Shown: positions 3,747 through 34,356 of the stretch, in pieces | Numbering within the stretch: position 1 is the first letter of the stretch | Layout of the letters: the number at the start of each line of letters is the position of its first letter | Source of the DNA: Alphaproteobacteria bacterium UBA2903 | Lineage (GTDB): Bacteria > Pseudomonadota > Alphaproteobacteria > CAAGCB01 > CAG-977 | NCBI GenBank assembly: GCA_002349565.1 | Contig: DEDN01000030.1 | Location: 9,184 to 73,183 of the forward strand | Direction of reading: 5' to 3' | DNA length: 64,000 nt | Notes under the pieces: generated by a model | The model's input: only the letters and a program-made list of their open reading frames with translations | Databases searched by the model: none | What the model was told of the DNA's origin: nothing | Made by a program: the position numbers and the translations under genes

Positions 3747-3995
3747 CGTCCCGAACTGAAAGCGGCAGCAACGTACGACTTTGCCCAAGACAACGAAGAC
3801 CGCATTGCCATGCTGCCCGATGAAACGGTGTATTCCGTCAAAGGCAAGCCTTTGGAAAAATTCGGCGTGGAAGCGGGCGCGGATCTGTTTATGACGTTCG
3901 GCAACAGCAGCGAAATCAACCTAACTTACGAAGGCAGATTCCGCAAAAATTTCCAAGACCACACCGCTATGCTCAGCTTCAAGGTCAATTTCTGA
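3747..3995 (+). pseudogene. Remnant of an autotransporter beta-barrel (C-terminal approximately 83 aa only)
   Basis: The C-terminus of ORF 3606..3995 (RPELKAAATYDF...FGVEAGADLFMTFGNSSEINLTYEGRF...SFKVNF) aligns with the last approximately 83 aa of the large autotransporter at 21718..24216 (MPELKAAATYDF...FGIEAGAGFSMNFGKSASLSLLYDGMF...NAKINF). No passenger domain or signal peptide lies upstream. Confidence 0.6.
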
Positions 3996-3997
3996 AG

Positions 3998-4975
3998 TTA
4001 CCGTTTTTCCAGATAGTTCATCGGATCGACGGCTTTTGTTCCGCGGCGGATTTCAAAGTGCAGCTGCGGTTCTTTGGCGTTGCCCGTTTTGCCCGCTTTC
4101 GCCATCGGCTGCCCGCGTTTGACGGTATCGCCGCGCTTGACCAGAAATTCCTTGTTGTGCGCATACGCGGTAATCCACCCGTCGGCGTGTTTGACCAGCA
4201 GCAGATTGCCAAATCCTTTCAGTTCGTTGCCCGCGTAAGCCACAACGCCGTTTTCCGCGGCGCGGACAAAAGTCCCTTCGGCGACTTTGATATTGATGCC
4301 GTCGTTGTGTCGCCCTCCCCCCGCCGAACCGAATTTGTTCATGACCGTGCCATTAACGGGCCAAGCAAACTTGGCTTTGGCGCGATCGGGCGGCGCAGGC
4401 AGACGCGCCGCCGTTTTGCGGGTTGTTTTCTTGCTTGATTTGGCGGATTTCGCCGCCGTTTTTTTCACGGTCGTTTTGGCGGGGGTGTTTTTCAACGCAA
4501 CCCAGCGTTCCGTCGGTTCAACGACAGATCCAGGCAGCTTTAAAATCTGTCCCAGATAAATCGAATACGGCGCGTACAGGTTGTTCGTGCGGGTCAGCAC
4601 GCTCATATCCACGTTATAACGGCGGGAAATGCTGTAAATGGTGTCGCCCTTTTGAACAACGTGAACGGACGGTTCGGGCAGACGAAGACGCGCCCCTTTG
4701 GACAGGATGAACGGCGGTTTGAGGTTGTTGACCTCGATCATTGAACGGATGGGGACGTTATAGCGGCGGGACAAGGAATAAACCGTATCGCCTTTATGCA
4801 CTGTCACATACGACGGCGACAGGCTTTGCACACGGTATTGTTCGCGGTAATAGGGCGAATTTTGCGCTTTGACGGGCGCATAATATCCGCCGCGATTCAG
4901 CACGACGCCCGAACACCCCGCCAAAGCGGCGGCAAGCGCGGCAATCCCGACAATCCTTTTCAAGTCCCATTCCAT
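3998..4975 (-). CDS. LysM-domain M23 family metallopeptidase lipoprotein (NlpD-like murein hydrolase activator)
   Basis: A lipoprotein signal with lipobox (LAGC) is present. There are two LysM repeats (HKGDTVYSLSRRYNV... and QKGDTIYSISRRYNV...). The C-terminal M23 domain reads GINIKVAEGTFVRAAENGVVAYAG...GWITAYAHN...PQLHFEIR. Confidence 0.8.
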   Translation of the reverse strand: MEWDLKRIVGIAALAAALAGCSGVVLNRGGYYAPVKAQNSPYYREQYRVQSLSPSYVTVHKGDTVYSLSRRYNVPIRSMIEVNNLKPPFILSKGARLRLPEPSVHVVQKGDTIYSISRRYNVDMSVLTRTNNLYAPYSIYLGQILKLPGSVVEPTERWVALKNTPAKTTVKKTAAKSAKSSKKTTRKTAARLPAPPDRAKAKFAWPVNGTVMNKFGSAGGGRHNDGINIKVAEGTFVRAAENGVVAYAGNELKGFGNLLLVKHADGWITAYAHNKEFLVKRGDTVKRGQPMAKAGKTGNAKEPQLHFEIRRGTKAVDPMNYLEKR

Positions 4976-5095: not shown

Positions 5096-7675
5096 ATGAC
5101 CGCATCGCCCGAAACCGTTTACGCCGCAGATTACAAAAAGCCCGCTTATCAAATCAGCCGCGTCGATATAACGTTCGACCTTGGTTTGAACCATACGGAA
5201 ATCACGGCGGAAATGCGCGTTCGCCGCGAACCCGACACGGCGGCGGGAACGCCTTTGTTTTTGGACGGCGACGAACTGACTCTGCAAAGCGTCGCGATTG
5301 ACGGCAGGATTTTGACGGAAAGCGAATACGCGCTGTCGGACGACGGCATGACGATTTTCAATCCGCCCGAAAGCTTTGACTTGACAATCAAAACGGTTGT
5401 CAATCCTACGGCGAACACAAAACTGCAAGGGCTTTACGCGTCTGACGGAATCTTGTGTACCAAATGCGAAACGCACGGTTTCCGCCGCATTACCTATTTT
5501 CTTGACCGGCCCGACGTGATGCCCGTTTGGCGCACGACGCTGATTGCCGACAAAGCAAAACTGCCGACTCTGGTTTCCAACGGCAACAAGGAAGAAGCCG
5601 CAGACTTGCCAGACGGACGGCACAAAGCGGTGTTTTTCGATCCCGTGCCGAAAGCGTGCTACTTGTACGCCGTTGTCGCGGGCAATCTGGACAGGCGGCA
5701 GGACAGCTTTGTGACCCGATCGGGACGCAAGGTTGAACTGAATGTCTTTGTCGAGGCGGGCAAAGGCGATATGACCGCTTACGCTTTGGAATCGCTGAAA
5801 CGCGCGATGAAATGGGACGAAGACACGTTCGGGCGCGAATACGACCATGATGTTTTCAACATTGTCGCGGTGTCGAATTTCAATTCGGGCGCATGCGAAA
5901 ACACGTCTTTAAACATCTTCAACGACAAATATGTGCTTGCCGACCCCGCCAAAGCGACGGATGCGGATTACGCCAACATCGAAGGCGTCATCGCGCACGA
6001 GTATTTTCACAACTGGTCGGGCAATCGCGTTACTTTGCGCGACTGGTTCGATTTGACGCTGAAAGAAGGCTTGACCGTCTACCGCGATCAAGAATTTTCG
6101 TCCGACATGCGGTCGCGCGCCGTTAAACGGATAGAGGACGTTGCGGCGTTGCGCGCGTTCCAGTTCCCGCAGGACGCAAGCCCCCTCGCCCACCCGATAA
6201 GCCCCGATTCCTATATTTCCGTGCGTTCGCTTTACACCACAACCGTTTACGACAAAGGCGCGGAAGTCATCCGCATGATGGCGCGCATGGCGGGCAAAGA
6301 CAAATTTCGCAAAGGCATGGATTTGTACTTTTCCCGCAACGACGGCAAAGCGGTGACGTGTCACGACTTTGTCGCGGCGATTGCCGACGGCGCGGATTTG
6401 GACTTAAAGCAATTCGAGGATACTTGGTATCATCAGGCGGGAACGCCCGCGGTAACCGCTTCGGGCGTTTATGACGCAAAGGAAAAAACATACTCGCTGA
6501 CTTTGCGGCAATCAACGCCCGCGACACCGAATCAACCCGTCAAGCGTCCTTTTGTCATTCCTTTGCAAATCGGGCTGATGGATAAAAACGGCAAAGACAT
6601 GGCGGACGAAATCGTCGTTTTGACCGAATCCGAACAGACTTTCGTGTTTGAAAACATCCCCGAAAGCCCCGTTTTATCAGGCAACCGCGGCTTTACCGCG
6701 CCGATTTGGTTCAAAGCCGACTATACGCCCGAACAGCGCGCTTTGCTGATGGCAAAAGATTCCGATTTGTTCAACCGCTGGGACGCGGGACAGCAGTTCG
6801 CAATCGATATTTTATTGGCTTTGGTCAAAGCCCCCGCCGCCCCCGTTCCGCCCGCTTTCATAAACGCGCTTAAGGGGTATCTGACCGATGAAATGCCGGA
6901 CAAAGCCTTTGTCGCCAAAGCTTTCATCCTGCCGTCCGAACGCATGCTGGCGGAACAAGTCGCCGTTATCGACGTTGACGCGATTCACCGCGCGCGCGAA
7001 GCTTTGCGCCGCCGTATCGCAACCGAATTGAAAGCGGAACTGCTGAACGCTTACAACGCCAATGCCGCAACGGGGGCTTATGTTCCGAACGCGGCGGATT
7101 CGGGCAAGCGCGCCGTTAAAAATACGGCGTTGGCGTATTTAAGCCTGCTTGACGACACATTGGCGCAAAAACAGTACCGTTCGGCGGCGCAGATGACCGA
7201 CAAAGAAGCCGCCGTCCGCGTGTTTGCAGGCAAAGATTCGCCGCAAGCCCAAGCGATTATGGACGACTTTTACCAAACATACAAAAAAGACTCTTTGGTC
7301 GTCGACAAATGGCTGACAATGCAGGCGACGGCGAACGAAAATGCGCTTTCCACCGTCAAAAAGCTGTTGCGCCACGAAGCGTTTTCCATAACCAACCCGA
7401 ACAAAGTCCGCGCGCTTATCGGCGCGTTTGCCGCCAATCCGACGGCACTGCACAAAGCGGACGGTTCGGGTTATGACTTCATCGTTGAACAAACACTTGC
7501 CGTTGACAAAATCAATCCGCAAATCGCGGCGACCATCCCTGTTGCTTTGGGAATGTGGAAAAAATTCGACGCACGGCGGCAGACGTTGATGAAAAACGCC
7601 CTTGTTCGCCTGATGAACACGCCCGATTTATCGCCGAACACTTTTGAAATCGTGTCAAAGTCGCTGAAAGGATAA
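5096..7675 (+). CDS. pepN: Aminopeptidase N (M1 family zinc metallopeptidase)
   Basis: It has the gluzincin motif HEYFHNWSGNRVT...LKEGLTVY, and the N-terminus is PepN-like (YKKPAYQISRVDITFDL). The start was chosen at the ATG at 5096, which has an AAAGGAAG RBS. The gene encodes about 859 aa. Confidence 0.9.
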   Translation: MTASPETVYAADYKKPAYQISRVDITFDLGLNHTEITAEMRVRREPDTAAGTPLFLDGDELTLQSVAIDGRILTESEYALSDDGMTIFNPPESFDLTIKTVVNPTANTKLQGLYASDGILCTKCETHGFRRITYFLDRPDVMPVWRTTLIADKAKLPTLVSNGNKEEAADLPDGRHKAVFFDPVPKACYLYAVVAGNLDRRQDSFVTRSGRKVELNVFVEAGKGDMTAYALESLKRAMKWDEDTFGREYDHDVFNIVAVSNFNSGACENTSLNIFNDKYVLADPAKATDADYANIEGVIAHEYFHNWSGNRVTLRDWFDLTLKEGLTVYRDQEFSSDMRSRAVKRIEDVAALRAFQFPQDASPLAHPISPDSYISVRSLYTTTVYDKGAEVIRMMARMAGKDKFRKGMDLYFSRNDGKAVTCHDFVAAIADGADLDLKQFEDTWYHQAGTPAVTASGVYDAKEKTYSLTLRQSTPATPNQPVKRPFVIPLQIGLMDKNGKDMADEIVVLTESEQTFVFENIPESPVLSGNRGFTAPIWFKADYTPEQRALLMAKDSDLFNRWDAGQQFAIDILLALVKAPAAPVPPAFINALKGYLTDEMPDKAFVAKAFILPSERMLAEQVAVIDVDAIHRAREALRRRIATELKAELLNAYNANAATGAYVPNAADSGKRAVKNTALAYLSLLDDTLAQKQYRSAAQMTDKEAAVRVFAGKDSPQAQAIMDDFYQTYKKDSLVVDKWLTMQATANENALSTVKKLLRHEAFSITNPNKVRALIGAFAANPTALHKADGSGYDFIVEQTLAVDKINPQIAATIPVALGMWKKFDARRQTLMKNALVRLMNTPDLSPNTFEIVSKSLKG

Positions 7676-21687: not shown

Positions 21688-21718
21688 AAAGGCGGAGAAT
21701 TTTCCCCGCCTTTTGCTT
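21688..21718. terminator. Bidirectional intrinsic terminator (A7-GGCGG...CCGCC-T4) at the 3' end of the autotransporter gene
   Basis: The sequence aaaaaaaggcggagaattttccccgcctttt was read directly. It serves the minus-strand autotransporter, whose stop is at 21718, and any plus-strand read-through from ppa. Confidence 0.5.
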
Positions 21719-24700
21719 TAAAAGTTGATTTTCGCATTCATCACAACGGAATGGCTTTCCAGTTTTCCTTGGAACATACCGTCGTACAAAAGGGACAGGC
21801 TGGCGGATTTGCCGAAATTCATTGAAAAACCCGCCCCCGCTTCAATGCCGAACCGTTTGTCTTGGTCCGTTTCAACGATATAGCTTGTGCCGTTGGGCAG
21901 CACCGCGGTCCTGTCGCTGCCGGTGCGGACAAAATCGTATGTGGCGGCGGCTTTCAGTTCCGGCATAAACAAAACGGGGGTCTTCCCTTTCAGACGATAC
22001 CGTTTTGACAGCTTGAATCCGAGGACAGAGGTTGCGGCGGAACTGTTTTTGTCTTCCAGCTCAACCCCCAAAGCATCGGTGTAAGCCTTTTGATGCGTGT
22101 TGATGAAGCGCACGGCGAATTCGGGGGACAACAGCACGGGAGCGGCATAGCCGAACGCGATTTGCGCGCTGATCGTGTTGGTCTGGTATTCGCTTTCCAA
22201 TTTCGCGATTTTTGTTGTGTCGTTGTAGGAGGAACGACCGAAGCCCGCAAAAAAGTTCGTGTAGAACCGTTTGGGCTGATACTGGGCGTACACAAAACCC
22301 GTTTGCGTGTCAACATCGACATCGGATCTGTCCGCGTCAATGGATGTCGAAGCATAGGAATACCCCAATCCGACTTTGAAATCATCGGAAAGATAGGCTT
22401 CCATACCCGCCGCAAACCCTGCCGAATCGGATGAAAAGCCCTCTGTTCCGCGCTGTTCGGCGTGGTTGTACAGCCCTTGCGCCCAAACCGCGCCGTTTCC
22501 TGCTTCGTAATCGCCGCCGGAACGTCCGTACATCCGTCTGTATCCGGCAAAACGGGGCGCGCTCGGCATATTAAAGCGGGTGGACACGACATTGATAACG
22601 TTTTTGGCGTGGTTTTCGTCAATCAGGATTCCGAATTTCGACAAATCGGGGGCGATTTCGCGCATAACTTGGTATTTCTTTTCGGTATCGCCGTCAAACT
22701 TTGTCAGCAAATCGTCGATTTTATTCAAAGCGTCTTGCTGTTTGTCCGTCAGCTTGTCCAAATCTTTGTCGTTCAGATCCAGAATTTTCAAAGCGTCCTT
22801 GATAACGGGATGAACTTCCATGTCTTTGACCATCGAGGCAGCTGACAAGCGCAATATGTACAGATCTCCACCGTCCCAGTTCGTCAAAGCTCCGATTTTC
22901 GAAGCGTCCGCAGGGTCGAAATATTTTGCCGAAACCGCATAACGGCTTGTCAAATAGTCGCCGAATTTGAACCCCGATCCTTCGGTGATGTGATACAGCG
23001 TCGTTTTGGTGGTGGATGCCGTCCCCATTTCCAGCTTGATCGTAACGTTTTCCGCATTGGCGGTGATGATGGGCGTGGTCTTTGCGGCATCGGTCAATAT
23101 GGCGGAAATCGTCCCGCCCGTGATGTTGTCCGCTTTCAACGGGGTCGCCCCGATGTCCAGCGTTTTGCTGTCGCCGATGCCGATATCGCGGAATGAAAAG
23201 CCGTAGCCGCGGGTCACGTCGCTTAACGCGTAATCGGCATTAAAGTTCACATTCGCCGATCCCGACAGCGTGCCGTTCAGACGCGCCGATGAGGTTTGAA
23301 AATCAATCGTCGCGCCGTCGGCGGCGACATCGCCGATCATCGTTCCTTTTAACTCAAGGGTGGAAGCACCGTCCAAATGCAATTTCTCGTCTGCGGACGA
23401 AAACGTCAAAACGGCGTTGTCGGCGACATCCAAAACAGAGCCGACAAACTGAACTTTACCCGAACGGGCGGACAATTCGTTGTTGCCGTTGGCAATGATT
23501 TTTGAGTTTTCGACATATATGTTGCCCGCCTCGAAAGCCACACTTAAAGGAGTAACCATGTAGGGTTGTACATTATATACAGGGGCTTTTTCATTTGACA
23601 AACTGTCGTTGATCAGCTTTGCATTGTCGTTCAGCACAAATGTCGAATTGACAATCGTTACATCCGCCCCGTAACCATTTTTCAAAGTGTTGTTGAAGTC
23701 TTCATAATCAAACGTCATCCATTCTCTAAAACCTGCTTCATCATTGCACCTCGATTGGATTTCTTCTTTGGTGGAAGAACTGCCGAAAATCTTTTTTGTA
23801 AAATCCGTCAATGATTCGCCATCTCCGTAAACATCTTCAACAAGGAAGTCTACGGCAGTCTTGATTTCATCGGCTGTCAATTGACCGCGAAAGAGCAAAA
23901 GAGGACTGTCTTCACTCGAACTGCCGACACTCGAAACCGAAGCCGGAGGTCTGTAGGCGGTGGATGCCAAAGAAGCATATCCGATTCCCGCGGCTGAATT
24001 TCCATTTAAAGTTATTGTCGCATCCGTAAAAGCGACATCATATTTGTCGGCAGAATAAATTTGGGAAGGGGTGTACAATGTTTTGCCATCAATTTGGTAA
24101 ACCAAGATTCCGGTATTTGTAAAATCACCCAAAAAAGAATTGTTGTTCGCCGTGATTTTTTTCGGAAACAGACAGCGCAGAAATTGATGTATCCGAAACG
24201 GAAATCCCCCGTTCACCCGTAACTTTTAAATCCCAAGTCGAAATTAACGGATATTCAGGAACATTATATCCCAGCCCATTTGATTTGTATATTGTGTTGA
24301 AAGACACCTTGTCGGAATCGATGGAAATCGTTTCGGCGTCCAAATATACAAAATCATCCAGAGTGCCGCCCGTAAGGGTGATGGTGCCAGCCTTAAATGC
24401 CGCCGCCCCGAACGTTCCCCCCGAAATTGTAATGCTCCCCGAGTTTTGAGCTCTAAAAGAAACGTCCGAGAAATCGCCGTCCTCAATCGACAAAGCGGCG
24501 GACGCATCGTACCAGCCGCCTTTGTGCGTTCCGCCCTTGATTGTGATATCCGGTGCGTCAATGTCTGTATCCGAAAAATCACCGGCTTCAATCAGTAAAG
24601 AATCTTCATCGGAAAGATATTCATTTTTATGTGGTCCCTCCGAAATTGTTGTTGCCGCTTCGACGATATAAGGAAAAAACGTTAAATTCGCCAAAAAACA

Positions 24701-24769
24701 TTTGATTAAAACGGAACGGTAACGGGCAGACAATATACCCGATGCGGATTTCGATAATTTCATAAGCAT
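21718..24769 (-). pseudogene. Autotransporter (type Va secretion) adhesin/protease-like protein, about 1016 aa, interrupted by a frameshift in an A7 (T7 on the plus strand) homopolymer
   Basis: ORF 24125..24769 encodes an extended signal peptide (MLMKLSKSASGILSARYRSVLIKCFLANLTFFPYIVEAATT) and the start of a beta-helical passenger. It stops at TGA 24125. ORF 21718..24216, in a different frame, continues the passenger and ends with a canonical beta-barrel (…YDGMFQGKLESHSVVMNAKINF). Deleting one A from the minus-strand A7 at about 24156-24162 fuses the frames (…LSVSEK-ITANNNSFLGDF…). Confidence 0.7.
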
Positions 24770-24942
24770 CTCTACCCCTTGTGCAAGATATCATTAGAAA
24801 AAATTCAGTACTGTTTTGATATGAAGTTTGGGCTACTCTCCCTAAAACATACAATTCCTATTTTCAGGATACATCTCGATAATTGTATTGGCAAGGATTT
24901 TTTTATTTTTGATTATGTGCGTCAATTTTCAGAATACAAAAA

Positions 24943-24976
24943 AGAGCCGCAAATCTGCGACTCTTTTCCGTTGAGT
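24943..24976. terminator. Bidirectional intrinsic terminator downstream of rpsI
   Basis: The sequence aaaaaagagccgcaaatctgcgactctttt has a GC stem flanked by an A-run and a T-run. It lies 13 nt after the rpsI stop on the minus strand. Confidence 0.5.
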
Positions 24977-24988
24977 AATCCGAAACGA

Positions 24989-25468
24989 TTAACGTTTGGA
25001 GAACTGATAGCTGCGGCGCGCTTTGGCTTTGCCGTATTTTTTGCGTTCGACGACGCGCGGATCGCGTGTCAGGAAGCCTGCGCGTTTCAGCGCGGTGTGC
25101 AATTCCGGTTCATAGTTATCCAAGCAACGGCTGATACCGTGGCGGATAGCCCCCGCCTGACCCGACAAACCGCCGCCGGAAACGGTAACAACGGCGTCAA
25201 ACTGACCTTCGCGGTTTGTAACCGCAAACGGCTGGTTGATCAGCATGCGCAGAACGGGACGGGTAAAGTAAACGTCCAATTCCTTGCCGTTGATGGTGAT
25301 TTTGCCCGAACCGGCTTTCAGCCAAACGCGGGCGGAAGCGTCTTTGCGGCGACCCGTGGCATAAGCACGACCGAATTTGTCGCGCTGCGGTTCACGAACG
25401 GCGACCGGTTCGGCGGCAATGGCTTCGGCGGTCTGTTTCAAGTCTTCAAAAGATTTGATTTCAGCCAT
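24989..25468 (-). CDS. rpsI: 30S ribosomal protein S9 (long, alphaproteobacterial-type N-terminal extension)
   Basis: It has [15 protein letters not shown]...[17 protein letters not shown]...[18 protein letters not shown] and is 159 aa. Confidence 0.9.
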
Positions 25469-25471
25469 GGA

Positions 25472-25933
25472 TTAGCTCCTTTTGTTTTTCGGGTTCAGCG
25501 CGGCGATGTCCAGAAATTCGGGATTCTGGGCTGCATGCGGGTGTTCTTTGCCGGCATAGACGCGCAGATTCGTCATCTGTTTGCGTCCCAGCGGATTGCG
25601 CGTGATCATGCGTTCAACCGCTTTGATGATAACGCGTTCCGGATGTTCGCCCGCAATGACTTTGCCGGCGGTCACGCCTTTGATGCCGCCGGGATGACCC
25701 GTGTGGCGATAGTACACTTTGTCTTCCAGTTTTTTACCGGTCAAAGCGACTTTTTCCGCATTGATGATGACAACGCAGTCGCCGCAATCCATGTGCGGAG
25801 TGAAAGAGGTTTTATGTTTGCCGCGCAGAATTTTCGCGACAATGCTCGCCAAACGACCCAAAACCAAGTCTTCGGCATCGATCAGATACCACTTCTTTTG
25901 GATATCGGCAGGCTTAACGGATAAGGTCTGCAT
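25472..25933 (-). CDS. rplM: 50S ribosomal protein L13
   Basis: The start is at [30 protein letters not shown] (the ORF track extends 23 codons upstream). The protein is 154 aa. Confidence 0.9.
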
Positions 25934-26179
25934 AGAGTTATTCCCTACATTGAAGTTAAAAACTGCAAGGAAGATACCCAATACCCCGCCTTGTGTCAAC
26001 AAAAATCACAACACAAAAACGATTTATTTTCAATGAGTTATAAAATAGGTATTATTTTACCAACTTTACAGGCGTTAAAAACGGTCGGTTTCGGACGAAA
26101 AACGCGCATTTTTCTTTTTACATTGATTTTTTAATCCGAATCCGCCATAGTTCGGTACATTGCGATGGTGGAAACGATT

Positions 26180-27463
26180 ATGAACGAAAACCTTTTTTCT
26201 GCGGAACGCGATTCCGCGCCCGTCAAAGACATTCCTTTCAATATCCCTTTGGTCGCCGATCTGGACGACAACGGCGGGGTTGTCGAACTGACGACTTTTT
26301 ATGAAGCGGGGCGGTTCGCGTCCGCCGAATTGAAAGCCTGGATCGAACTGTTCGGCAAAGAAAAGGCGGACAAGGATTTCTTGCAGACCGTCATCGACTT
26401 TCAGCTGCGCACGCCCCGTTCGATCTGCGCCGCAGCCGAATCGGTCCTGAACGGCGAAATGTCGCCGACCGAAGGCTTTTCCGTCATCCGTTCGGAACTG
26501 AACAACTATCTGGGATTCAAGTGCATTCACAGCGGCGGCACGATCGGAAAAATGGCGGCGGTCATGTACCGCTACGAACCGATGCTGATGGGCATCGTCG
26601 CTGGTGCTTCGGGTTCCGTTCCGCTGTCGGACGCCGAAGCGTATCCGTCGCATGCCGACGCGGAAAGCTTTACGTTCGGCTATGCGCTCACGATGCATTG
26701 CCGCACGAACATCCGCCCCGAAATGCTGGACGGAAAAGTCGGCGACACCCTGCGCAAAATCAACCACATCATCCGCCGCGTCGAACTGGCGGACAAACAG
26801 ATAAAGCCGATTGCCAACGAACAGATAGCCTTGCAGCAAAATATTGAAGAAGCTCACAGGCAGCTGAAAACTTACCGCACGGACGTCGCGGAATACATTT
26901 CCCAACTGGTGGCGGAAATCAAGCAGACTTCGGACAGCGCAATCAATGAAATGTGGAATCAGCTGAACCTGATTCAAAACGATCACGAACGCCAGCTTGC
27001 CGCCCTGCGGCAAAGCGTTTCCAGCCGAATCCGCTACGGGACGGCATTGGATTATTGGAACGCGCAGCAATCCCTGAATCAGGCGAAAGCCAACCAAATG
27101 ACGGGCTGGTATGTAATCTCCGGATTGTTTTCGATTACGTTTTTGGGATTGATCGGCATTCTGACGAAAAAATATCTGGCGGGCGTGTCGGCTTTTGTGC
27201 CGTTCATTACCCTGTTTTTGCCTTTGATGGTCGCGGGCGGACTGTTCTGGCTGCTGCTGCAAACCCGCACGCGTTATGAAAAAGCCGCCGCGCAGGCGCA
27301 GGAAAAAGTAGCCCTGCTGGAAACGCTTGCCGCTTTGGAAACAGAGGGAAAAGCCAAAGAATCCGACAGGGACGGCGTTTTGGAATCGATTTTCAAAACG
27401 ACTTTTACCGCGCCCTCCCCCGCTATGGAAGCGGCGGAACACGAAGATTCCGCCGAATCGTAA
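26180..27463 (+). CDS. Orphan protein: approximately 210-aa N-terminal globular domain, long coiled coil, two adjacent TM helices, acidic C-terminal tail
   Basis: The plus-strand ORF is 26165..27463, with the probable start at ATG 26180 (GGTGGA RBS). Heptad-like stretches are present (ANEQIALQQNIEEAHRQLKTYRTDVAEYISQLVAEIKQ...). The TM hairpin is WYVISGLFSITFLGLIGILT and FVPFITLFLPLMVAGGLFWLLL. A fully antisense 455-aa ORF (26075..27442) exists, but it is Arg/Phe/Gly-rich junk. Confidence 0.55.
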   Translation: MNENLFSAERDSAPVKDIPFNIPLVADLDDNGGVVELTTFYEAGRFASAELKAWIELFGKEKADKDFLQTVIDFQLRTPRSICAAAESVLNGEMSPTEGFSVIRSELNNYLGFKCIHSGGTIGKMAAVMYRYEPMLMGIVAGASGSVPLSDAEAYPSHADAESFTFGYALTMHCRTNIRPEMLDGKVGDTLRKINHIIRRVELADKQIKPIANEQIALQQNIEEAHRQLKTYRTDVAEYISQLVAEIKQTSDSAINEMWNQLNLIQNDHERQLAALRQSVSSRIRYGTALDYWNAQQSLNQAKANQMTGWYVISGLFSITFLGLIGILTKKYLAGVSAFVPFITLFLPLMVAGGLFWLLLQTRTRYEKAAAQAQEKVALLETLAALETEGKAKESDRDGVLESIFKTTFTAPSPAMEAAEHEDSAES

Positions 27464-27470
27464 CTTTATT

Positions 27471-28028
27471 TTATCCGCCGACGGCTTCTTTTACGGCGTC
27501 AAACAGCTTCACCGCATCAGCAGGCGGCGGGGTCATTTCGCGCAACAGCGGATCTTTCGCCCATTTGACGGTGTTTTCCGTGCCGTCGACGCTGTACGTT
27601 ACAAAACAAAAGTCGGCACCTTCGGGATAGCTGTCGAACTTTATCCCCGAAAAACCGATTTTTTCCGCATAATCGAACAAGTTTTTCGCAGCGGCGGCAT
27701 CCGTTTTCAACAATGTGTAAAAATACGGATTCATTCTGTCTATTTGCGGATAATCTTCGTAGCCGTAAAATTTACCGTCTTCCTGGAAATAAATGCCTTT
27801 CGCCCTGAAAACGATCGCCTTTTCGGCGGGCGAACAGCCCGTTGCCATTTTGGACGGCAGACGAACGGCGGCGGGAACGGTTGAATCGGCAGCGCCGTCC
27901 TGCTCCATCCCGCTTATATAATAAGACGCGTCATGCTGCGGCTTGTTGCCCATCGCCAGCGAATCCCGCGCTTGAAAAAACAGTCCTGCAACCACCAATC
28001 CGTTGATAAACAGGTCTTTTTTCGTCAT
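27471..28028 (-). CDS. Hypothetical secreted protein
   Basis: The start was chosen at MTKKDLFINGLVVAGLFFQARDSLA, which is a signal peptide. The ORF track begins 34 codons earlier in a poly-K/R region. It is convergent with the orphan gene. Confidence 0.5.
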   Translation of the reverse strand: MTKKDLFINGLVVAGLFFQARDSLAMGNKPQHDASYYISGMEQDGAADSTVPAAVRLPSKMATGCSPAEKAIVFRAKGIYFQEDGKFYGYEDYPQIDRMNPYFYTLLKTDAAAAKNLFDYAEKIGFSGIKFDSYPEGADFCFVTYSVDGTENTVKWAKDPLLREMTPPPADAVKLFDAVKEAVGG

Positions 28029-28181
28029 TGTTTTTCCTTTCTTTCGTTTTGCCGCTCTTTTTCGCAAAATTTTTTCGAAAAAATCGTTTTTTTCTGAAAA
28101 AAAGTCTGGCGAAAAGATAAAAAATGTCATATCATCCTTATAAATGATTAACCCAACGAGTTCAACGACTCTTTTGCAAAG

Positions 28182-30821
28182 GTGACTTCTATGGCGATCT
28201 TAAACGAATATGAATTGCATCTGTTGGCGATGATGTCCGGTATCGACGAACACGCGACCATTGATAACAAACAGTCTTTGCTGGTGGCTCTGGACGTTTT
28301 AAAGCCGCAGGAAAATATGAGCGACGCCGACTACGCCGCGGAAATCAACAAAACTTTGAACAAAGCTTTGGACGAACAGTACGCCAAACCGCTGGCGAAT
28401 GTTTCCGTTTTGCGCAAAGACCGACAGAACCGCGTTGAATTCGTCGTTCCCGCCGGACACGACAACGAATCCCTGACTTGGGGCGTTACCGAAGAAAACG
28501 GCGCCAAACACGACGGTTCCGTCAAAATCGCCGATACGCAAATCTGCTACGGCGTCGACGGAAAGCCGATGCGCCGCGAAATCAACGGAGTCACTTACGA
28601 AAAGCGGTCTTTTGAACTGAAAGCCGATATGGAAATGGGCTACCATTCACTGGAAGCGCAAATTCCCGGTCAGCCCAAAGCCAAAGCGGAAATGATTTAC
28701 GCGCCGACGAAATGCTATGACCCGATCGACATCAAAAACGGCGGCAAAGCTTGGGGTGTTCCCGTTCAGCTGTATGAACAGCGTTCCGACGAAAACCAAG
28801 GCATCGGCGATTTGTCCGACTTGGCTGAAATCGCGGACACCATCGGCAAGCACGGCGCGGGCATCGTCGGCGTCAACCCGCTGCACGCCATGTTCCAAAA
28901 CGGCGCGGAAGAAGCCAGCCCCTACTCGCCCGCCAGCCGCACTTACTTCAACCACATTTATTTGGATGTGACCGCCGTTCCCGATTTCAAGGACAGCAAA
29001 GAAGCGCAGGCGTTGTACGATTCGCCCGAATACACGGAAAAACGCCGCAAAGCGCAGGACACGGTTGACGTCGACTATACGTCTGCGTTCGAACTGAAAA
29101 ATCCGATTTTGGACAAATGCTTCGACACGTTCGAAAAGTCCGCCTCCCCCGAACGCCGCGCCGCTTTTGAATCTTTCAAAGCCGAAGGCGGCAAACGTCT
29201 GGAAGACTTCGCGACATGGCAGGCTTTGTCCGATCACTTCTCGAAAGCCGATCCGAAGAGCTTTGACTGGCGCGACTGGCCCAAGGAATACCAAGATCCC
29301 TCGACTCCCGAAGTTCAGGCGTTCAAAGAACAGAACAAAAAGCAGATTGAAAAATACACCTATCTGCAATGGGAAACCTTGCGTCAGATGGAAAACGTGC
29401 AGGACGTCTGCCACAACAACGGCATGAAAGTCGGTTTGTACACCGACATCGCCGTCGGCAGTGCGCCGTTCGGTTTCGAAGGCTGGGGCTGCAAAGACCT
29501 GTATATGAAAGCGTCCGCGGGCGCTCCCGCCGACATTCTGAGTCCGAACGGTCAGAATTGGGACGTTTTGGGCTTCAAGCCGAAAGCATTGAAAGAAACG
29601 GGCTACAAACCGTTTATCGAAATGCTGCGCAACAATATGAAAACGTCGGGCTGCACCCGTTTGGACCACGTTTTGCAGCTGGCGCGTCTGTACATGATTC
29701 CGCACGGCAAAACCGCGAAAGAAGGCGCGTTCGTTTACTATCCCGTTGACGACTTGATGGCTGTCGCGGCGTTGGAATCCAACCGCAACAAATGCATGCT
29801 GATCGGCGAAGATTTGGGGCAGCTGCCTCCGGGATTCCAAGACAAACTGATGGATCACGGCATTCTGTCGTACCGCGTGCTGCCCTTTGAACGTCAATGG
29901 GGCTACCAGAACGGCAGCGACAACAACGCTTTCCGTCATCCCGAAGAATACCCGCAGTATTCGACGGCGGCTCCATCCACGCACGACACTCCGTCTTTGG
30001 CGAGCCAATGGACGGCGCGCGACGTGCATTTGAAAGACTATTTGGGCTATTACGAAAGCGATCAGCAGCGCAATATGGAATTCAGACAGTATGAAACCCA
30101 GCGTTGCGCCATCAACTACGCCTTGAACGAAAAAGGCAGCTGGCAGAAAGTCGGCGCTCAGCCTGTTTCCGACCCCGCGCACGACACCCGTTCCGTTCCC
30201 TACAAGTTCGAACAGGCGATTGCGGATTACTTGGGTCAGTCGAAATCGGCGATGCTGCTGTTCCCGTTCTCGGATATGTTCCGCACGAACTACATGGGCA
30301 ACATCCCCGGCACGCGTCAGCGTCATGCGTCCAAGAGCGAAAACGTCCAGAAAGTCTTTGAACAGGGCGGCGCGAGCAACATTCCTTGGAAAAACTGGCG
30401 TCCGAAAATGCACCTGAAAGTCAACGAAATCAAAGAAGTTCCCGTGTTCAAGGAAATTTCCACGATTTTGAACGGCTATCGTCAGGCGGGCAATGAAAAT
30501 TCGAAAGTCAAAGACCCGCAGGTTCCTGATTTCAAACGCCCCGGTCGCACGGAAAACAAACAGCGTGACGCAAAACGTGTTGTTTCCCTGTACCAGAGCT
30601 TGGCGAACAGCGGATACTTCAAAACCTACGCTTATGACATCATTGCGGCGAAATTCTCTGAAAAGCATCGTCAGCGCGATGTCCAGAAGACCGAAGAATT
30701 CAAAAAGAATTACGAAGGTCGCCGTCAAGCGATTGAAGAAAAGAAACGGCAATATCAGCAGAGCGGCGCAGCCAAAACGCTGAATATTCAAAAGCTGAAA
30801 TCCGACCGCCGTTCACGCTAA
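28182..30821 (+). CDS. malQ: 4-alpha-glucanotransferase (amylomaltase, GH77) with N- and C-terminal extensions
   Basis: It has the GH77 core motifs (WGVPVQLYEQRS...GIGDLSDL, GVNPLHA, LIGEDLGQLPP, STHDTPSLASQW). It is 879 aa with an approximately 150-aa Lys/Arg/Glu/Gln-rich C-terminal tail. It has an apparent GTG start, with an alternative ATG at about 28191. Confidence 0.8.
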   Translation: MTSMAILNEYELHLLAMMSGIDEHATIDNKQSLLVALDVLKPQENMSDADYAAEINKTLNKALDEQYAKPLANVSVLRKDRQNRVEFVVPAGHDNESLTWGVTEENGAKHDGSVKIADTQICYGVDGKPMRREINGVTYEKRSFELKADMEMGYHSLEAQIPGQPKAKAEMIYAPTKCYDPIDIKNGGKAWGVPVQLYEQRSDENQGIGDLSDLAEIADTIGKHGAGIVGVNPLHAMFQNGAEEASPYSPASRTYFNHIYLDVTAVPDFKDSKEAQALYDSPEYTEKRRKAQDTVDVDYTSAFELKNPILDKCFDTFEKSASPERRAAFESFKAEGGKRLEDFATWQALSDHFSKADPKSFDWRDWPKEYQDPSTPEVQAFKEQNKKQIEKYTYLQWETLRQMENVQDVCHNNGMKVGLYTDIAVGSAPFGFEGWGCKDLYMKASAGAPADILSPNGQNWDVLGFKPKALKETGYKPFIEMLRNNMKTSGCTRLDHVLQLARLYMIPHGKTAKEGAFVYYPVDDLMAVAALESNRNKCMLIGEDLGQLPPGFQDKLMDHGILSYRVLPFERQWGYQNGSDNNAFRHPEEYPQYSTAAPSTHDTPSLASQWTARDVHLKDYLGYYESDQQRNMEFRQYETQRCAINYALNEKGSWQKVGAQPVSDPAHDTRSVPYKFEQAIADYLGQSKSAMLLFPFSDMFRTNYMGNIPGTRQRHASKSENVQKVFEQGGASNIPWKNWRPKMHLKVNEIKEVPVFKEISTILNGYRQAGNENSKVKDPQVPDFKRPGRTENKQRDAKRVVSLYQSLANSGYFKTYAYDIIAAKFSEKHRQRDVQKTEEFKKNYEGRRQAIEEKKRQYQQSGAAKTLNIQKLKSDRRSR

Positions 30822-30837
30822 AGATTACATAAAGAAA

Positions 30838-30948: not shown

Positions 30949-31530
30949 TTATTTTGCAGACAACAAATCCAACGAGTTGCCGATAACGTTTTCAAACGTC
31001 ATGCCCGTTTCGTTTTCAATCGTTTCACGCGCGAACTGGGCGGAGCGGGAAAACGGATCGTCCGCCCGTTCCATATCTTTCATCGCTTTCATAACTCTGT
31101 CGCGAACGGCTTCGGGCGCGGCTTTGATTCTGTTTTCGAACGATGTCGGGATTTTATATCCCATACGGCGCAAATGTTCGGTAATCGACAGCATGTTGTG
31201 CATATTGACCTCGGGTGCCGTAGCGCGCTGACCGTAATCCGTTCCCCATGTCGTCATTTCCCCTGTAAACTCGGGCATTTTTGTGTTCCAGATATTGCTG
31301 GAACCGCCCGCGTATGTTGGTTGATACGGCTGAGAGCCGTAAACCACGGGACCGACCTGCTGCACCTGAATCGGCTGCTGCTGTTGGTAGTAAACGGGCT
31401 GCTGATAATAAACAGGCTGTTGAGCCGTATTCGACGCCGCCCACGGATCGGACGGCAATGCTTGAGCGCTCGCTTGCACCGACAGCGCAACAAACGAAAC
31501 CGCTGCTGTCAAAATCATATTTTTCTTCAT
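30949..31530 (-). CDS. Hypothetical secreted protein with Gln/Tyr/Pro-rich tandem repeat
   Basis: It has a signal peptide (MKKNMILTAAVSFVALSVQASA), a low-complexity QQPVYYQQPVYYQQQQPIQVQQVGPVVYGSQPYQPTY region and a C-terminal helical domain. Confidence 0.55.
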   Translation of the reverse strand: MKKNMILTAAVSFVALSVQASAQALPSDPWAASNTAQQPVYYQQPVYYQQQQPIQVQQVGPVVYGSQPYQPTYAGGSSNIWNTKMPEFTGEMTTWGTDYGQRATAPEVNMHNMLSITEHLRRMGYKIPTSFENRIKAAPEAVRDRVMKAMKDMERADDPFSRSAQFARETIENETGMTFENVIGNSLDLLSAK

Positions 31531-31618
31531 TGGACTACCCCCGCCGAATTTTTCATTATTGGTTACAGCTTACTCTCTTTTTAACAAAAGGAACAGTTAC
31601 AAAAATGTGTCGTTTTTG

Positions 31619-32995
31619 TTAAGCCCGTTTCCATTGCGTCCCGGACGGCGTGTCTTCGATAACAACGCCTTTGTCCGCCAATTCCTTGCGCACGGCGTCC
31701 GCCGTTGCGAAATCTTTGGCTTTGCGGGCATCGGCGCGTTTTTGAATCAACGCTTCGATTTCCGATTCGGACAATCCCTGTTCCTGTTTTGCGGGCGACC
31801 AACGGAACCATTCTTCGGGGTCTTGATACAAAATACCCAACAAATGCCCAGACGCAATCAGCGTTTTTTTCAGTTCGACCGCTTTTTCGGGCGATTTGTT
31901 CATTTCGGTCACAAGCCCGTGCAGAACGGCAATCGCTTTCGGCGTGTTCAAATCGTCGCTCAACGCTTCGACCACTTCGGCGGACGGCAGAGCTTCCGAC
32001 AAATCAACCGCAGGCGTCAACCGCAAAGCCGTATAGAATCTGTCCATAGTCTGCTTGGCTTGTTTCAAACCTTCGGGCATCCAGTTCAGCGGCTGGTGGT
32101 AATGCGTTCCCAACGCGTACAGGCGGAACGCTTCCCCCGGCACTTGGTCAAGGATTTCGCGAATGGTAAAGAAGTTGCCCAAAGACTTGGACATCTTTTC
32201 GCCGTTGACCATCAAATGCCCGTTGTGCATCCAGTATTTGGCGTAGAAATCGTGTCCGAAAGCACAGCACGACTGCGCGATTTCGTTTTCGTGGTGCGGG
32301 AAAATCAAGTCCTGCCCGCCGCCGTGAATATCGAACGTTTCGCCCAAGTATTTGCTGCTCATCGCGGAACATTCCAAGTGCCACCCCGGACGGCCGCGCC
32401 CCCAAGGGCTGTCCCACCCCGGCTGAGTATCGTCGGACGGCTTCCACAAAATAAAGTCGGCGGCGTCGCGTTTGTACGGAGCAACCTCGACACGCGCGCC
32501 GGCAATCATTTCATCCATGGAGCGTCCCGACAGGCGTCCGTAGTTTTTCATCTTGGCAACGCTGAACAAAACATGCCCTTCGGCTTCGTAAGCATAGCCG
32601 TTGTCAATCAGCTTTTGCACCAAAGCAATCATCTCGGCGATATGTTGCGTGGCGCGCGGTTCGATGTCGGGCGGCAAAGCGTTCAGTTCGGCAATGTCGT
32701 CGTGAAAGAATTTCGCCGTTTTTTCGGTAATGACGTTAATGGGTTCGCCCGATTCCTGCGACCGTTTGATGATTTTGTCGTCCACATCGGTAATGTTGCG
32801 GACATACGTTACCTTGGGATACAGCTGTTTGAGCAAGCGGTACAGCGTATCGAAAACGATAATCGGGCGCGCGTTGCCGATATGAGCGCGGTCATAAACC
32901 GTCGGACCGCAAACGTACATGCGGACGTTATTCGGGTCAAGCGGCTCGAATTTTTCCTTTTTGCGGCTCATCGTATTTGTAACGTACAAAGTCAT
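31619..32995 (-). CDS. cysS: Cysteine--tRNA ligase
   Basis: It has MYVCGPTVYDRAHIGNARP (HIGH) and KMSKSLGN, and is 458 aa. Confidence 0.9.
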   Translation of the reverse strand: MTLYVTNTMSRKKEKFEPLDPNNVRMYVCGPTVYDRAHIGNARPIIVFDTLYRLLKQLYPKVTYVRNITDVDDKIIKRSQESGEPINVITEKTAKFFHDDIAELNALPPDIEPRATQHIAEMIALVQKLIDNGYAYEAEGHVLFSVAKMKNYGRLSGRSMDEMIAGARVEVAPYKRDAADFILWKPSDDTQPGWDSPWGRGRPGWHLECSAMSSKYLGETFDIHGGGQDLIFPHHENEIAQSCCAFGHDFYAKYWMHNGHLMVNGEKMSKSLGNFFTIREILDQVPGEAFRLYALGTHYHQPLNWMPEGLKQAKQTMDRFYTALRLTPAVDLSEALPSAEVVEALSDDLNTPKAIAVLHGLVTEMNKSPEKAVELKKTLIASGHLLGILYQDPEEWFRWSPAKQEQGLSESEIEALIQKRADARKAKDFATADAVRKELADKGVVIEDTPSGTQWKRA

Positions 32996-33000
32996 CTCTT

Positions 33001-34356
33001 TTATCCTTGCAAACGTTTTAAAGTTTTTTCATAGCCCAAGACAGGCAGCAGCATTTTCAATTCGGGTCCCTGCTCCAGTCCCGTCAGCGCCAAACGTATC
33101 GGGTGGAACAAATCGCGCCCTTTGCGTCCTGTTTTTTCCTTGACGGCGGCGGTCCAAGCCCCGAACGTGTTTTCGTCAAACTCGCCCGCCGGCAGCAATT
33201 CCGCCGCCTGACGCGCAAAAGCGCGGTCTTCGGCGCTTAAATCGAAAGTCAAATCTTCGCCGCAGATTTTCACCCAGTCGTTTACGTCGTCGACCTTGGT
33301 CAAATTCGGCGAAACCGCCGCCCACAGCTGTTCGGAAATCGGGGCTTTGCCCTCGGCTTTCAAACGGTCGTTGACTTCGGACAGCGGCAAAGCGTGAACA
33401 ATGCGGGGATTGAGCTTGAACAAATCCTGCGTGTCGAAATGCGGCTGAGCGCGTCCGAATTTGGTCAAATCGAAATGCGGCGCAAGCGCTTCCATGCTGG
33501 TTTCGACTACGGTCGCGTCCGACGTTCCCAAGCGCGCCAGCAAACAGGCGATAGTCATCGGCTCGATGCCCGCTTCACGCAAATCGCGGAAGTTGACGGA
33601 CCCCATACGTTTGGACAGTTTGCCCTCTTTTCCCGTCAGCAAAGGCGGATGTCCGAACACGGGAACCTTGCCGCCCAAAGCTTCGAACATCTGAATTTGA
33701 ACGGCGGTGTTTGTAACATGGTCTTCACCGCGGATAACGTGCGTAATGCCGAAATCCATATCGTCGATGACGGACGGTAGCATATAGGGGAAAGTCCCGT
33801 CTTCGCGCACAATAATCGGGTCGCTTAAATGCGCGCCGTTGTACGAGCAATGCCCGCGCACCATATCGTCCCACGACGTTTCCTTGTGTTCCAGAACAAA
33901 GCGGTAGTGCGGACGGCGCCCTTCGGCTTCGTACGCTTTGCGCTGTTCGTCGGTCAAACGCATGCCCGCGCGGTCGTAAACAGGCGGCAGCCCGCGCGCG
34001 TGCTGGCGGCGGCGTTTGTATTCCAATTCCTCCGCCGTTTCGTAGCAGGCGTAAATCAAGCCTTTGGCGCGCAACTGTTCGACGACTTCGCGGTAACGCT
34101 CCAAACGGGCGGATTGATGCTCCAGCCTGTCCCAAGAAATCTTCAGCCAGTTCAGTGCTTCGTAAACGGCGGCTTCGTATTCGGGCTTGGACCGTTCCGT
34201 GTCGGTGTCGTCCATTCGCAAAACGAAAGACACGTCCTCGCCCGCCTGTTTTTTATTCAAAGCAAACAGATAATTCAACAACGCCGTACGCAGATTCCCG
34301 ATGTGCATATATCCCGTCGGGCTGGGGGCAAAACGAACAACAATCACTTTAATCAA
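33001..34356 (-). CDS. gltX: Glutamate--tRNA ligase
   Basis: It has RFAPSPTGYMHIGNLRTAL (HIGH) and KLSKRMGS (KMSKS variant), and is 451 aa. Confidence 0.9.
   Translation of the reverse strand: MIKVIVVRFAPSPTGYMHIGNLRTALLNYLFALNKKQAGEDVSFVLRMDDTDTERSKPEYEAAVYEALNWLKISWDRLEHQSARLERYREVVEQLRAKGLIYACYETAEELEYKRRRQHARGLPPVYDRAGMRLTDEQRKAYEAEGRRPHYRFVLEHKETSWDDMVRGHCSYNGAHLSDPIIVREDGTFPYMLPSVIDDMDFGITHVIRGEDHVTNTAVQIQMFEALGGKVPVFGHPPLLTGKEGKLSKRMGSVNFRDLREAGIEPMTIACLLARLGTSDATVVETSMEALAPHFDLTKFGRAQPHFDTQDLFKLNPRIVHALPLSEVNDRLKAEGKAPISEQLWAAVSPNLTKVDDVNDWVKICGEDLTFDLSAEDRAFARQAAELLPAGEFDENTFGAWTAAVKEKTGRKGRDLFHPIRLALTGLEQGPELKMLLPVLGYEKTLKRLQG

Follow-up and report, generated by a model that had tools for sequence, protein, structure and literature searches.

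The stretch of DNA analysed here, called the window below, consists of 64,000 nucleotides of contig DEDN01000030.1 from Alphaproteobacteria bacterium UBA2903, and the gene under study occupies positions 26180..27463 of its plus strand. Comparison of sequences and profiles indicates that the product, of 427 amino acids, is very probably a homologue of the abortive-infection protein AbiZ. We somewhat favour a reading in which this divergent member of the AbiZ/DUF6161 family, passed on vertically, would be anchored in the membrane and raise its permeability in response to a cytoplasmic cue. The gene is real and under purifying selection, and it is present as a single copy within the window.

The reading frame listed for this gene opens at an alternative, in-frame ATG further upstream (26165..27463, plus strand, 432 amino acids), and residues are numbered from that codon throughout. 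The ATG at 26180 is the likelier start, because GGTGGA, which resembles a ribosome-binding site, lies 8 nt upstream of it, and because a database protein identical to that of the window (P0001) has 427 amino acids. GC content was 0.54-0.59 inside the gene and 0.37-0.38 in the DNA on both sides, in agreement with the AT-rich flanks described in the initial annotation.

Relationship to AbiZ and DUF6161

The protein had been regarded at first as an orphan with no recognised family. This is incorrect, since at least 57 close homologues exist and the protein belongs with a wider family of 136 representative clusters, for which Pfam holds a model, DUF6161 (PF19658). The close homologues are full-length relatives at 100-42% identity, found in a set of 5.8 billion proteins, and all those with a named source came from metagenome-assembled genomes (MAGs) of uncultured Alphaproteobacteria. 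The 136 clusters were recruited at E ≤ 1e-3 by the profile of the clade from 1.84 billion representative proteins; most are 380-420 amino acids long, and many matched the profile in both their N-terminal and C-terminal halves. A second, word-indexed protein search with a 47-sequence family alignment returned the close clade only.

A precomputed match to PF19658 was on record for 13 of the 57 close homologues, and 25 of the 27 clade members matched DUF6161 at E ≤ 0.01, with a best E of 1.3e-7. Scores above the 27-bit gathering cut-off of this model were reached by the syntenic outlier P0058 (32.6 bits), by P0060 (49.3 bits) and by P0069 (69.9 bits). Within the 47-sequence alignment, DUF6161 was matched by 43 sequences (best E 1.5e-29) and the AbiZ model of PADLOC (PDLC02354) by 34 (best E 1.3e-23).

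The strongest independent evidence pointing to homology is a two-step chain through intermediates, each link being significant on its own: the clade profile matched P0069 at E 1e-15, and P0069 matched the AbiZ model at E 7.9e-13. Nearer to the clade, proteins P0058 to P0064 gave E values of 3e-7 to 2e-6 with the AbiZ model, the value of 3e-7 being that of P0058, a syntenic orthologue whose gene adjoins rplM-rpsI. The distant member P0167 matched AbiZ over positions 49-395 of 398.

As AbiZ archetype we used WP_032398699.1, a protein of 432 amino acids encoded on plasmid pUCCL629C of a dairy Lactococcus, which matches the AbiZ model over its full length (E 2.6e-166). Its gene lies 2.4 kb from an AbiA gene, itself followed by a LlaJI-family restriction gene. 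PGAP labels the plasmid relatives, archetype included, 'DUF6161 domain-containing protein'. With hhalign, the family profile aligned to the archetype alone at 98.3% (E 2e-14, window residues 248-415 on AbiZ 236-408); the clade-only profile gave a weaker result (61%, E 8e-5). At the N-terminus, a motif NGG..F.S..E...W is found at the same position in the clade and in AbiZ. Set against an AbiZ-headed alignment of family members, the homology spans nearly the full length of the protein, residues 23-415.

Several observations weigh against this assignment. The window protein scored only 19.7 bits with DUF6161 (E 6.5e-4), below the gathering cut-off, and 11 bits with PADLOC AbiZ (E 0.05, residues 202-325 on profile positions 167-287); at E ≤ 0.001 it had no match to the latter model. 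Its very probable membership in the AbiZ family is thus drawn from profiles and intermediates, and not from the window protein by itself. The match of the clade profile to the AbiZ-headed alignment (A4, 14 sequences led by WP_032398699.1) reached 99.7%, E 1.1e-25 over 358 columns (residues 23-415 on AbiZ 10-408), but is partly circular, since some of the proteins in A4 had originally been picked up with the clade profile. The N-domain compared alone with that of AbiZ gave a marginal result, E 0.03-0.18.

Weak matches to LeoA, LeoC, MnmE, PspB and apolipoprotein all fell on the coiled coil and were dismissed. No homology to a housekeeping family was found. The kinship with membrane-disrupting abortive-infection proteins suggested in the initial annotation was right in kind, the protein being apparently a remote, full-length homologue of AbiZ. 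The analysis also identifies Pfam's family of unknown function DUF6161 as the AbiZ family, with a conserved N-domain of its own that has no Pfam model, and a hypothetical protein of at least 27 species becomes annotatable as an AbiZ-like membrane protein.

Protein architecture

The protein was modelled with AlphaFold using 27 homologues, and the N-domain was also folded alone. The layout initially proposed, an N-domain followed by a coiled stalk, two tightly spaced transmembrane (TM) helices and an acidic tail, was borne out by the model, by hydropathy and by charge. The N-terminal domain, predicted to be cytoplasmic (residues ~21-180, 26225..26704, plus strand), consists of a beta-hairpin and then a helical bundle. 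Folded alone it was modelled with confidence (pLDDT 83, pTM 0.77), and it carries the conserved motifs DNGG, W59, H122-S123 and Y137-E138-P139. The long stalk helix (residues 190-313, 26732..27103, plus strand) ends in the invariant IRYGTALDYWN just before the membrane, and its ~125 residues belong to a single modelled helix, 190-337. Hydrophobic periodicity in the stalk was 3.5-3.6 (residues 195-312), a modest signal that was reached by 0.9-2.7% of shuffles. It is in the stalk region that the DUF6161/AbiZ match begins.

The membrane hairpin (27104..27262, plus strand) was placed from hydropathy and the model helices, with TM1 at residues 314-336, a loop of ~7 residues, and TM2 at 344-366. Kyte-Doolittle windows exceeded 1.6 only at 314-334 and 344-367, and the hairpin aligns with two hydrophobic segments of AbiZ. 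In the model, a loop of about 6-7 residues follows helix 190-337, and the downstream helices are 344-394 and 399-413. The conserved C-terminal helices, predicted to be cytoplasmic (residues 367-413, 27263..27403, plus strand), were recognised by invariant columns and aligned to AbiZ 364-408; they bear two motifs, LLETLAALETEG and that of F410, whose counterpart in the wider family reads DAxERVxMxxTFLAL...ALFRP. The protein ends with a variable acidic tail of net charge -5 (residues 414-432, 27404..27460, plus strand). Positions conserved across the family are W59, H122-S123, W298 before TM1, and A378, T387, L406 and F410 in the C-terminal helices; W298 is invariant in the 47-sequence alignment. 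No PDB match was obtained by sequence, with either the full protein or the N-domain profile, nor was a PDB fold match found for the protein; the N-domain had no fold match among viral structure models at E ≤ 0.001.

Comparison with known systems

AbiZ was reportedly described by Durmaz and Klaenhammer in 2007, from plasmid pTR2030 of Lactococcus lactis. The window protein resembles the archetype in size (427-432 against 432 amino acids) and in the order of its elements, namely an N-domain with NGG...F.S..E...W, a long helix, a (Y/F)W before TM1, a tight TM hairpin, and an amphipathic C-terminal helix with its F motif. Both are single-gene units with no enzymatic domain, and neither has a PDB fold match (PMC13064643 for AbiZ). 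According to the same 2026 review, AbiZ leads to premature lysis (PMC13064643). It speeds lysis of cells expressing holin and endolysin, and raises the permeability of cells expressing holin (PMC6356687). The two differ in host, a Gram-negative alphaproteobacterium for the window gene and a Gram-positive bacterium for AbiZ, and in genetic setting, the window gene being chromosomal, syntenic and vertically inherited whereas AbiZ is on a plasmid beside AbiA and a restriction-modification (R-M) system. The window clade has, in addition, its own invariant motifs, IRYGTALDYWN and LLETLAALETEG. With DUF6161, the match runs from residue ~219 to the C-terminal helix; the Pfam model covers the C-terminal half only, whereas the conserved N-domain lies outside it.

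A more general likeness is to SLATT effectors and phage holins, in which a cytoplasmic sensing or oligomerising part is joined to a membrane-compromising TM hairpin. Membership in either group was rejected, as SLATT_1 (E 0.0045) and Phage_holin_3_6 (E ~0.005) each matched a single one of the 27 clade members. No nucleotide-signalling gene, SMODS/SLOG or other, was seen beside the gene in any locus inspected.

Distribution and inheritance

Scanning GTDB with a single genome for each species, we found the gene in 27 species, at 100-41% identity. All are gut, faecal or rumen MAGs, among them 'Acetobacter sp. CAG:977'. Of the GTDB loci, 23 had enough upstream DNA, and in 22 of these the divergent rplM-rpsI pair was found upstream, either adjacent or separated by a single gene. 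Metagenome contigs showed this synteny as well, with tblastn identity as low as 32%. The gene is not wedged in, as had been supposed, nor is its distribution patchy, its place beside rplM-rpsI being kept across the 27 species.

Identity of the protein tracked that of RplM: it was 74-81% where RplM was 97-99% identical, 58-69% at 83-93%, 44% at 87% and 32% at 73%. This fall in step with RplM fits vertical descent. Compared with the four closest species, amino-acid identity was 74-82% and dN/dS 0.11-0.16, against 95-99% and 0.02-0.07 (about 5 fold lower) for rpsI, rplM and malQ. We concluded that, in this clade of uncultured Alphaproteobacteria from gut and rumen, the gene is vertically inherited, occurs in single copy and has a fixed site beside rplM-rpsI; its behaviour as a syntenic core gene is what makes it unusual.

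The locus was also met in a GTDB record titled 'Limosilactobacillus gorillae' (L021, CAVCSV010000004.1), with RpsI and RplM 98-99% identical to those of the window; this bin is probably mislabelled or contaminated.

Mobile and defence contexts of distant relatives

Carriage on mobile elements or in defence islands was observed for distant relatives and not for the window clade, which differs from them by its fixed chromosomal site, its housekeeping neighbours and the absence of adjacent mobile-element genes. One distant relative adjoins a type I R-M system, another is near an IS200-type (Y1_Tnp) transposase gene, and another stands beside a series of small genes resembling a prophage. In locus L048 (2995-9639), the relative is accompanied by three adjacent tyrosine-recombinase genes, one more gene of the integrase family, fragments of IS66, and two genes for DNA methyltransferases. 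Pieces of a hydantoinase B gene were found on both sides, which suggests that the L048 element was inserted into that gene. Other distant relatives are on plasmids of Lactococcus, Lactiplantibacillus, Sutcliffiella, Vibrio and Acinetobacter, and toxin-antitoxin and recombinase genes were seen on the plasmids. Three distant members searched by tblastn against plasmids or phages gave no match, whereas two others found plasmid copies.

Two of these plasmids carry tiny type I toxin genes near the AbiZ-family gene. On the L. plantarum plasmid (L054), a 'putative holin-like toxin' gene (6694-6810) is located 150 bp downstream, and on a Lactococcus plasmid (L051) a PepG1 toxin gene (3939-4082) is located 1.3 kb upstream. 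Such neighbours are intriguing given the cooperation with holin proposed for AbiZ, and may be a coincidence.

Proposed function and alternatives

If the window protein acts as we somewhat favour, it would sit in the inner membrane by its hairpin, with the N-domain and the C-terminal helix in the cytoplasm, and would probably oligomerise through the long stalk. The N-domain might sense a phage-derived or membrane cue, by analogy a phage holin or some other late event at the membrane; for AbiZ itself, the cue proposed is cooperation with the phage holin. The hairpin and the amphipathic C-terminal helix would then raise membrane permeability, and the infected cell would depolarise or lyse before progeny phage are complete. 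Whether, by analogy with AbiZ, the protein still works as an AbiZ-type defence protein or permeabiliser in the window clade seems to us close to evenly balanced.

Part of the data speaks on the other side. The mechanism of AbiZ is graded only 'likely' in the literature, and for the window protein a defence role is inferred, the phage trigger, holin partner, oligomeric state and membrane effect all being putative. The gene holds one chromosomal position in 27 species, with no defence island, plasmid or prophage, which is unlike typical defence-island cargo, and a scan of viral contigs with the clade alignment found no relatives. A housekeeping role particular to the lineage would account for this fixed-site pattern no less well than immunity.

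The alternative to be weighed most seriously, although we judge it rather unlikely, is accordingly that of a domesticated AbiZ-like fold which now serves a lineage-specific envelope or membrane function, and not phage defence. It could be a membrane scaffold or a sensor of membrane integrity or stress, possibly tied to the polyprenyl-phosphate glycosyltransferase encoded upstream in relatives. Such a change of role would agree with the fixed position beside rplM-rpsI and the identity in step with RplM, with purifying selection, and with a housekeeping neighbourhood (malQ, cysS) in which no mobile-element gene is adjacent. In 17 of the 27 loci the AbiZ-like gene is directly preceded by a GT2 gene on the same strand, but this GT2 gene is lacking in the window and in deeper branches (L041-L045, L001, L018), so that a link with it is not obligatory. 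The dN/dS of the gene, about 5 fold that of its flanks, also argues against domestication, as do the absence of any housekeeping family among its matches, the mobile-element carriage of its distant relatives, and the fact that the sole experimentally studied relative is a defence protein.

We would more hesitantly still entertain the idea that an AbiZ-type gene was captured into the core genome of the clade beside rplM-rpsI, either as retained innate immunity or as a repurposed regulator of permeability or lysis. A repurposed role, if true, could concern the release of prophages or vesicles, or else envelope stress, and could in some cases be coupled to the polyprenyl-phosphate glycosyltransferase. 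The case bears on whether genes for defence may turn into fixed members of a core genome. AbiZ is one of a small number of abortive-infection proteins believed to act on the timing of lysis; a deep, vertically inherited chromosomal branch supplies diverse orthologues for work on structure and mechanism.

That the protein is instead a gated ion channel or a transporter, CorA-like or of another kind, working as an oligomeric funnel that conducts ions in normal physiology, is very improbable. The modelled topology does resemble that of CorA/Mrs2, in which a cytoplasmic domain is followed by a long stalk helix that runs on into TM1, and a short outer loop leads to TM2, and one source labels the orthologue P0058 'Mg2+ and Co2+ transporter CorA'. 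However, no match to the Pfam CorA model (PF01544) was found even at E ≤ 0.1, the loop YLAGVSA is variable and has no GMN motif, and the kinship in sequence is with AbiZ.

The antisense reading frame

A minus-strand open reading frame (ORF) of 455 codons (26075..27442) covers the plus-strand gene, as the initial annotation had described, and is unbroken across the whole locus. It is aligned codon for codon with the sense frame, so that a stop on the minus strand needs a sense TTA, CTA or TCA codon, and the AbiZ-like gene has none. This explains why the frame is open. The three codons make up 0-1.7% of those of neighbouring genes, and cysS (458 codons) likewise has none. A full-length antisense ORF is then not beyond chance, and this one results from codon usage.

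In six homologous loci the antisense frame contained 1, 3, 3, 4, 6 and 39 stops, and the sense frame was intact in all six. By the Nei-Gojobori method, dN/dS was 0.11-0.47 in the sense frame and 0.66-1.1 in the antisense frame. Conservation thus favours the plus strand over the minus-strand ORF, and the choice of the plus strand as coding, made initially from composition and periodicity, was upheld. The compositional bias reported for the antisense product was also found (R 13%, F 11%, G 9%), and this product had no family match in Pfam or NCBIfam searches. With equally long shadow ORFs over rpsI/rplM, malQ and cysS, it is next to impossible that 26075..27442 is the true gene or a second, overlapping one, and it should not be annotated as a gene.

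The other codon-aligned shadow ORFs are at 24779-25924 (plus strand, 381 amino acids, over rpsI/rplM), 28647-30791 (minus strand, 714 amino acids, over malQ) and 31559-33034 (plus strand, 491 amino acids, over cysS). Antisense ORFs are routine in this genome because TTA, CTA and TCA are avoided, and long ones could mislead a gene caller or a reader.

Neighbouring genes and flanking DNA

Upstream of the AbiZ-like gene in the window are rpsI and rplM, on the minus strand, and downstream a convergent ORF (27471..28028) and then malQ. The intergenic region from which rplM and the AbiZ-like gene diverge (25934..26179) is AT-rich, with a GC content of 0.37. Promoter-like hexamers were found there on both strands, the promoter and terminator counts being near shuffle expectation. 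A scan of 24000-29000 against Rfam gave a Thr_leader hit at 26095-26189 on the minus strand, with 29.4 bits against a gathering value of 55 (E 0.015), and was judged to be due to chance.

The convergent ORF had been named as the only neighbour of the gene. This is incomplete, as in the 17 related species mentioned above, the four closest included, the GT2 gene stands between rplM and the AbiZ-like gene. Its product resembles polyprenyl-phosphate glycosyltransferases of the AglJ, DPM and PpgS type. Where gene calls exist, it ends 32-38 bp upstream of the AbiZ-like gene; examples are L020 1140-1899, L006 5051-5968 and L008 1339-2007. From blastn breakpoints, 54 bp of the window (26061-26115) correspond to 759 bp with the GT2 gene in the closest relatives, and no copy of it was found anywhere else in the 64 kb.

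The convergent gene (27471..28028, minus strand) encodes 185 amino acids with a signal-peptide-like N-terminus by inspection, in line with the small secreted-type protein initially reported. It and the AbiZ-like gene have their stop codons 7 bp apart, and a terminator scan detected none between the two genes. The product had no Pfam, NCBIfam or PADLOC match. Compared with the four closest species it showed 46-50% identity and a dN/dS of 0.24-0.37, RpsI, RplM and MalQ being 95-99% identical; no homologue was detected in the loci of more distant relatives, and the word-indexed protein search returned a single cluster (99% identical). This is a small, fast-evolving protein, with no evidence for a functional partnership with the AbiZ-like gene.

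Collinearity with the four closest species, as read from the edges of blastn matches, spans only ~24926-30822. Upstream of this block are two minus-strand ORFs absent from the flanks of the relatives, one large and autotransporter-like (21718-24216) and one of 214 amino acids (24125-24769), the latter with no family match. The former is putatively called autotransporter-like from a C-terminus that looks beta-barrel-like by eye and from a Pfam Autotransporter match in the relative L018. Downstream of malQ, an ORF of 193 amino acids (30949-31530, minus strand) begins with a signal-peptide-like segment and contains a repeat rich in Q, Y and P, QQPVYYQQPVYYQQQQP.

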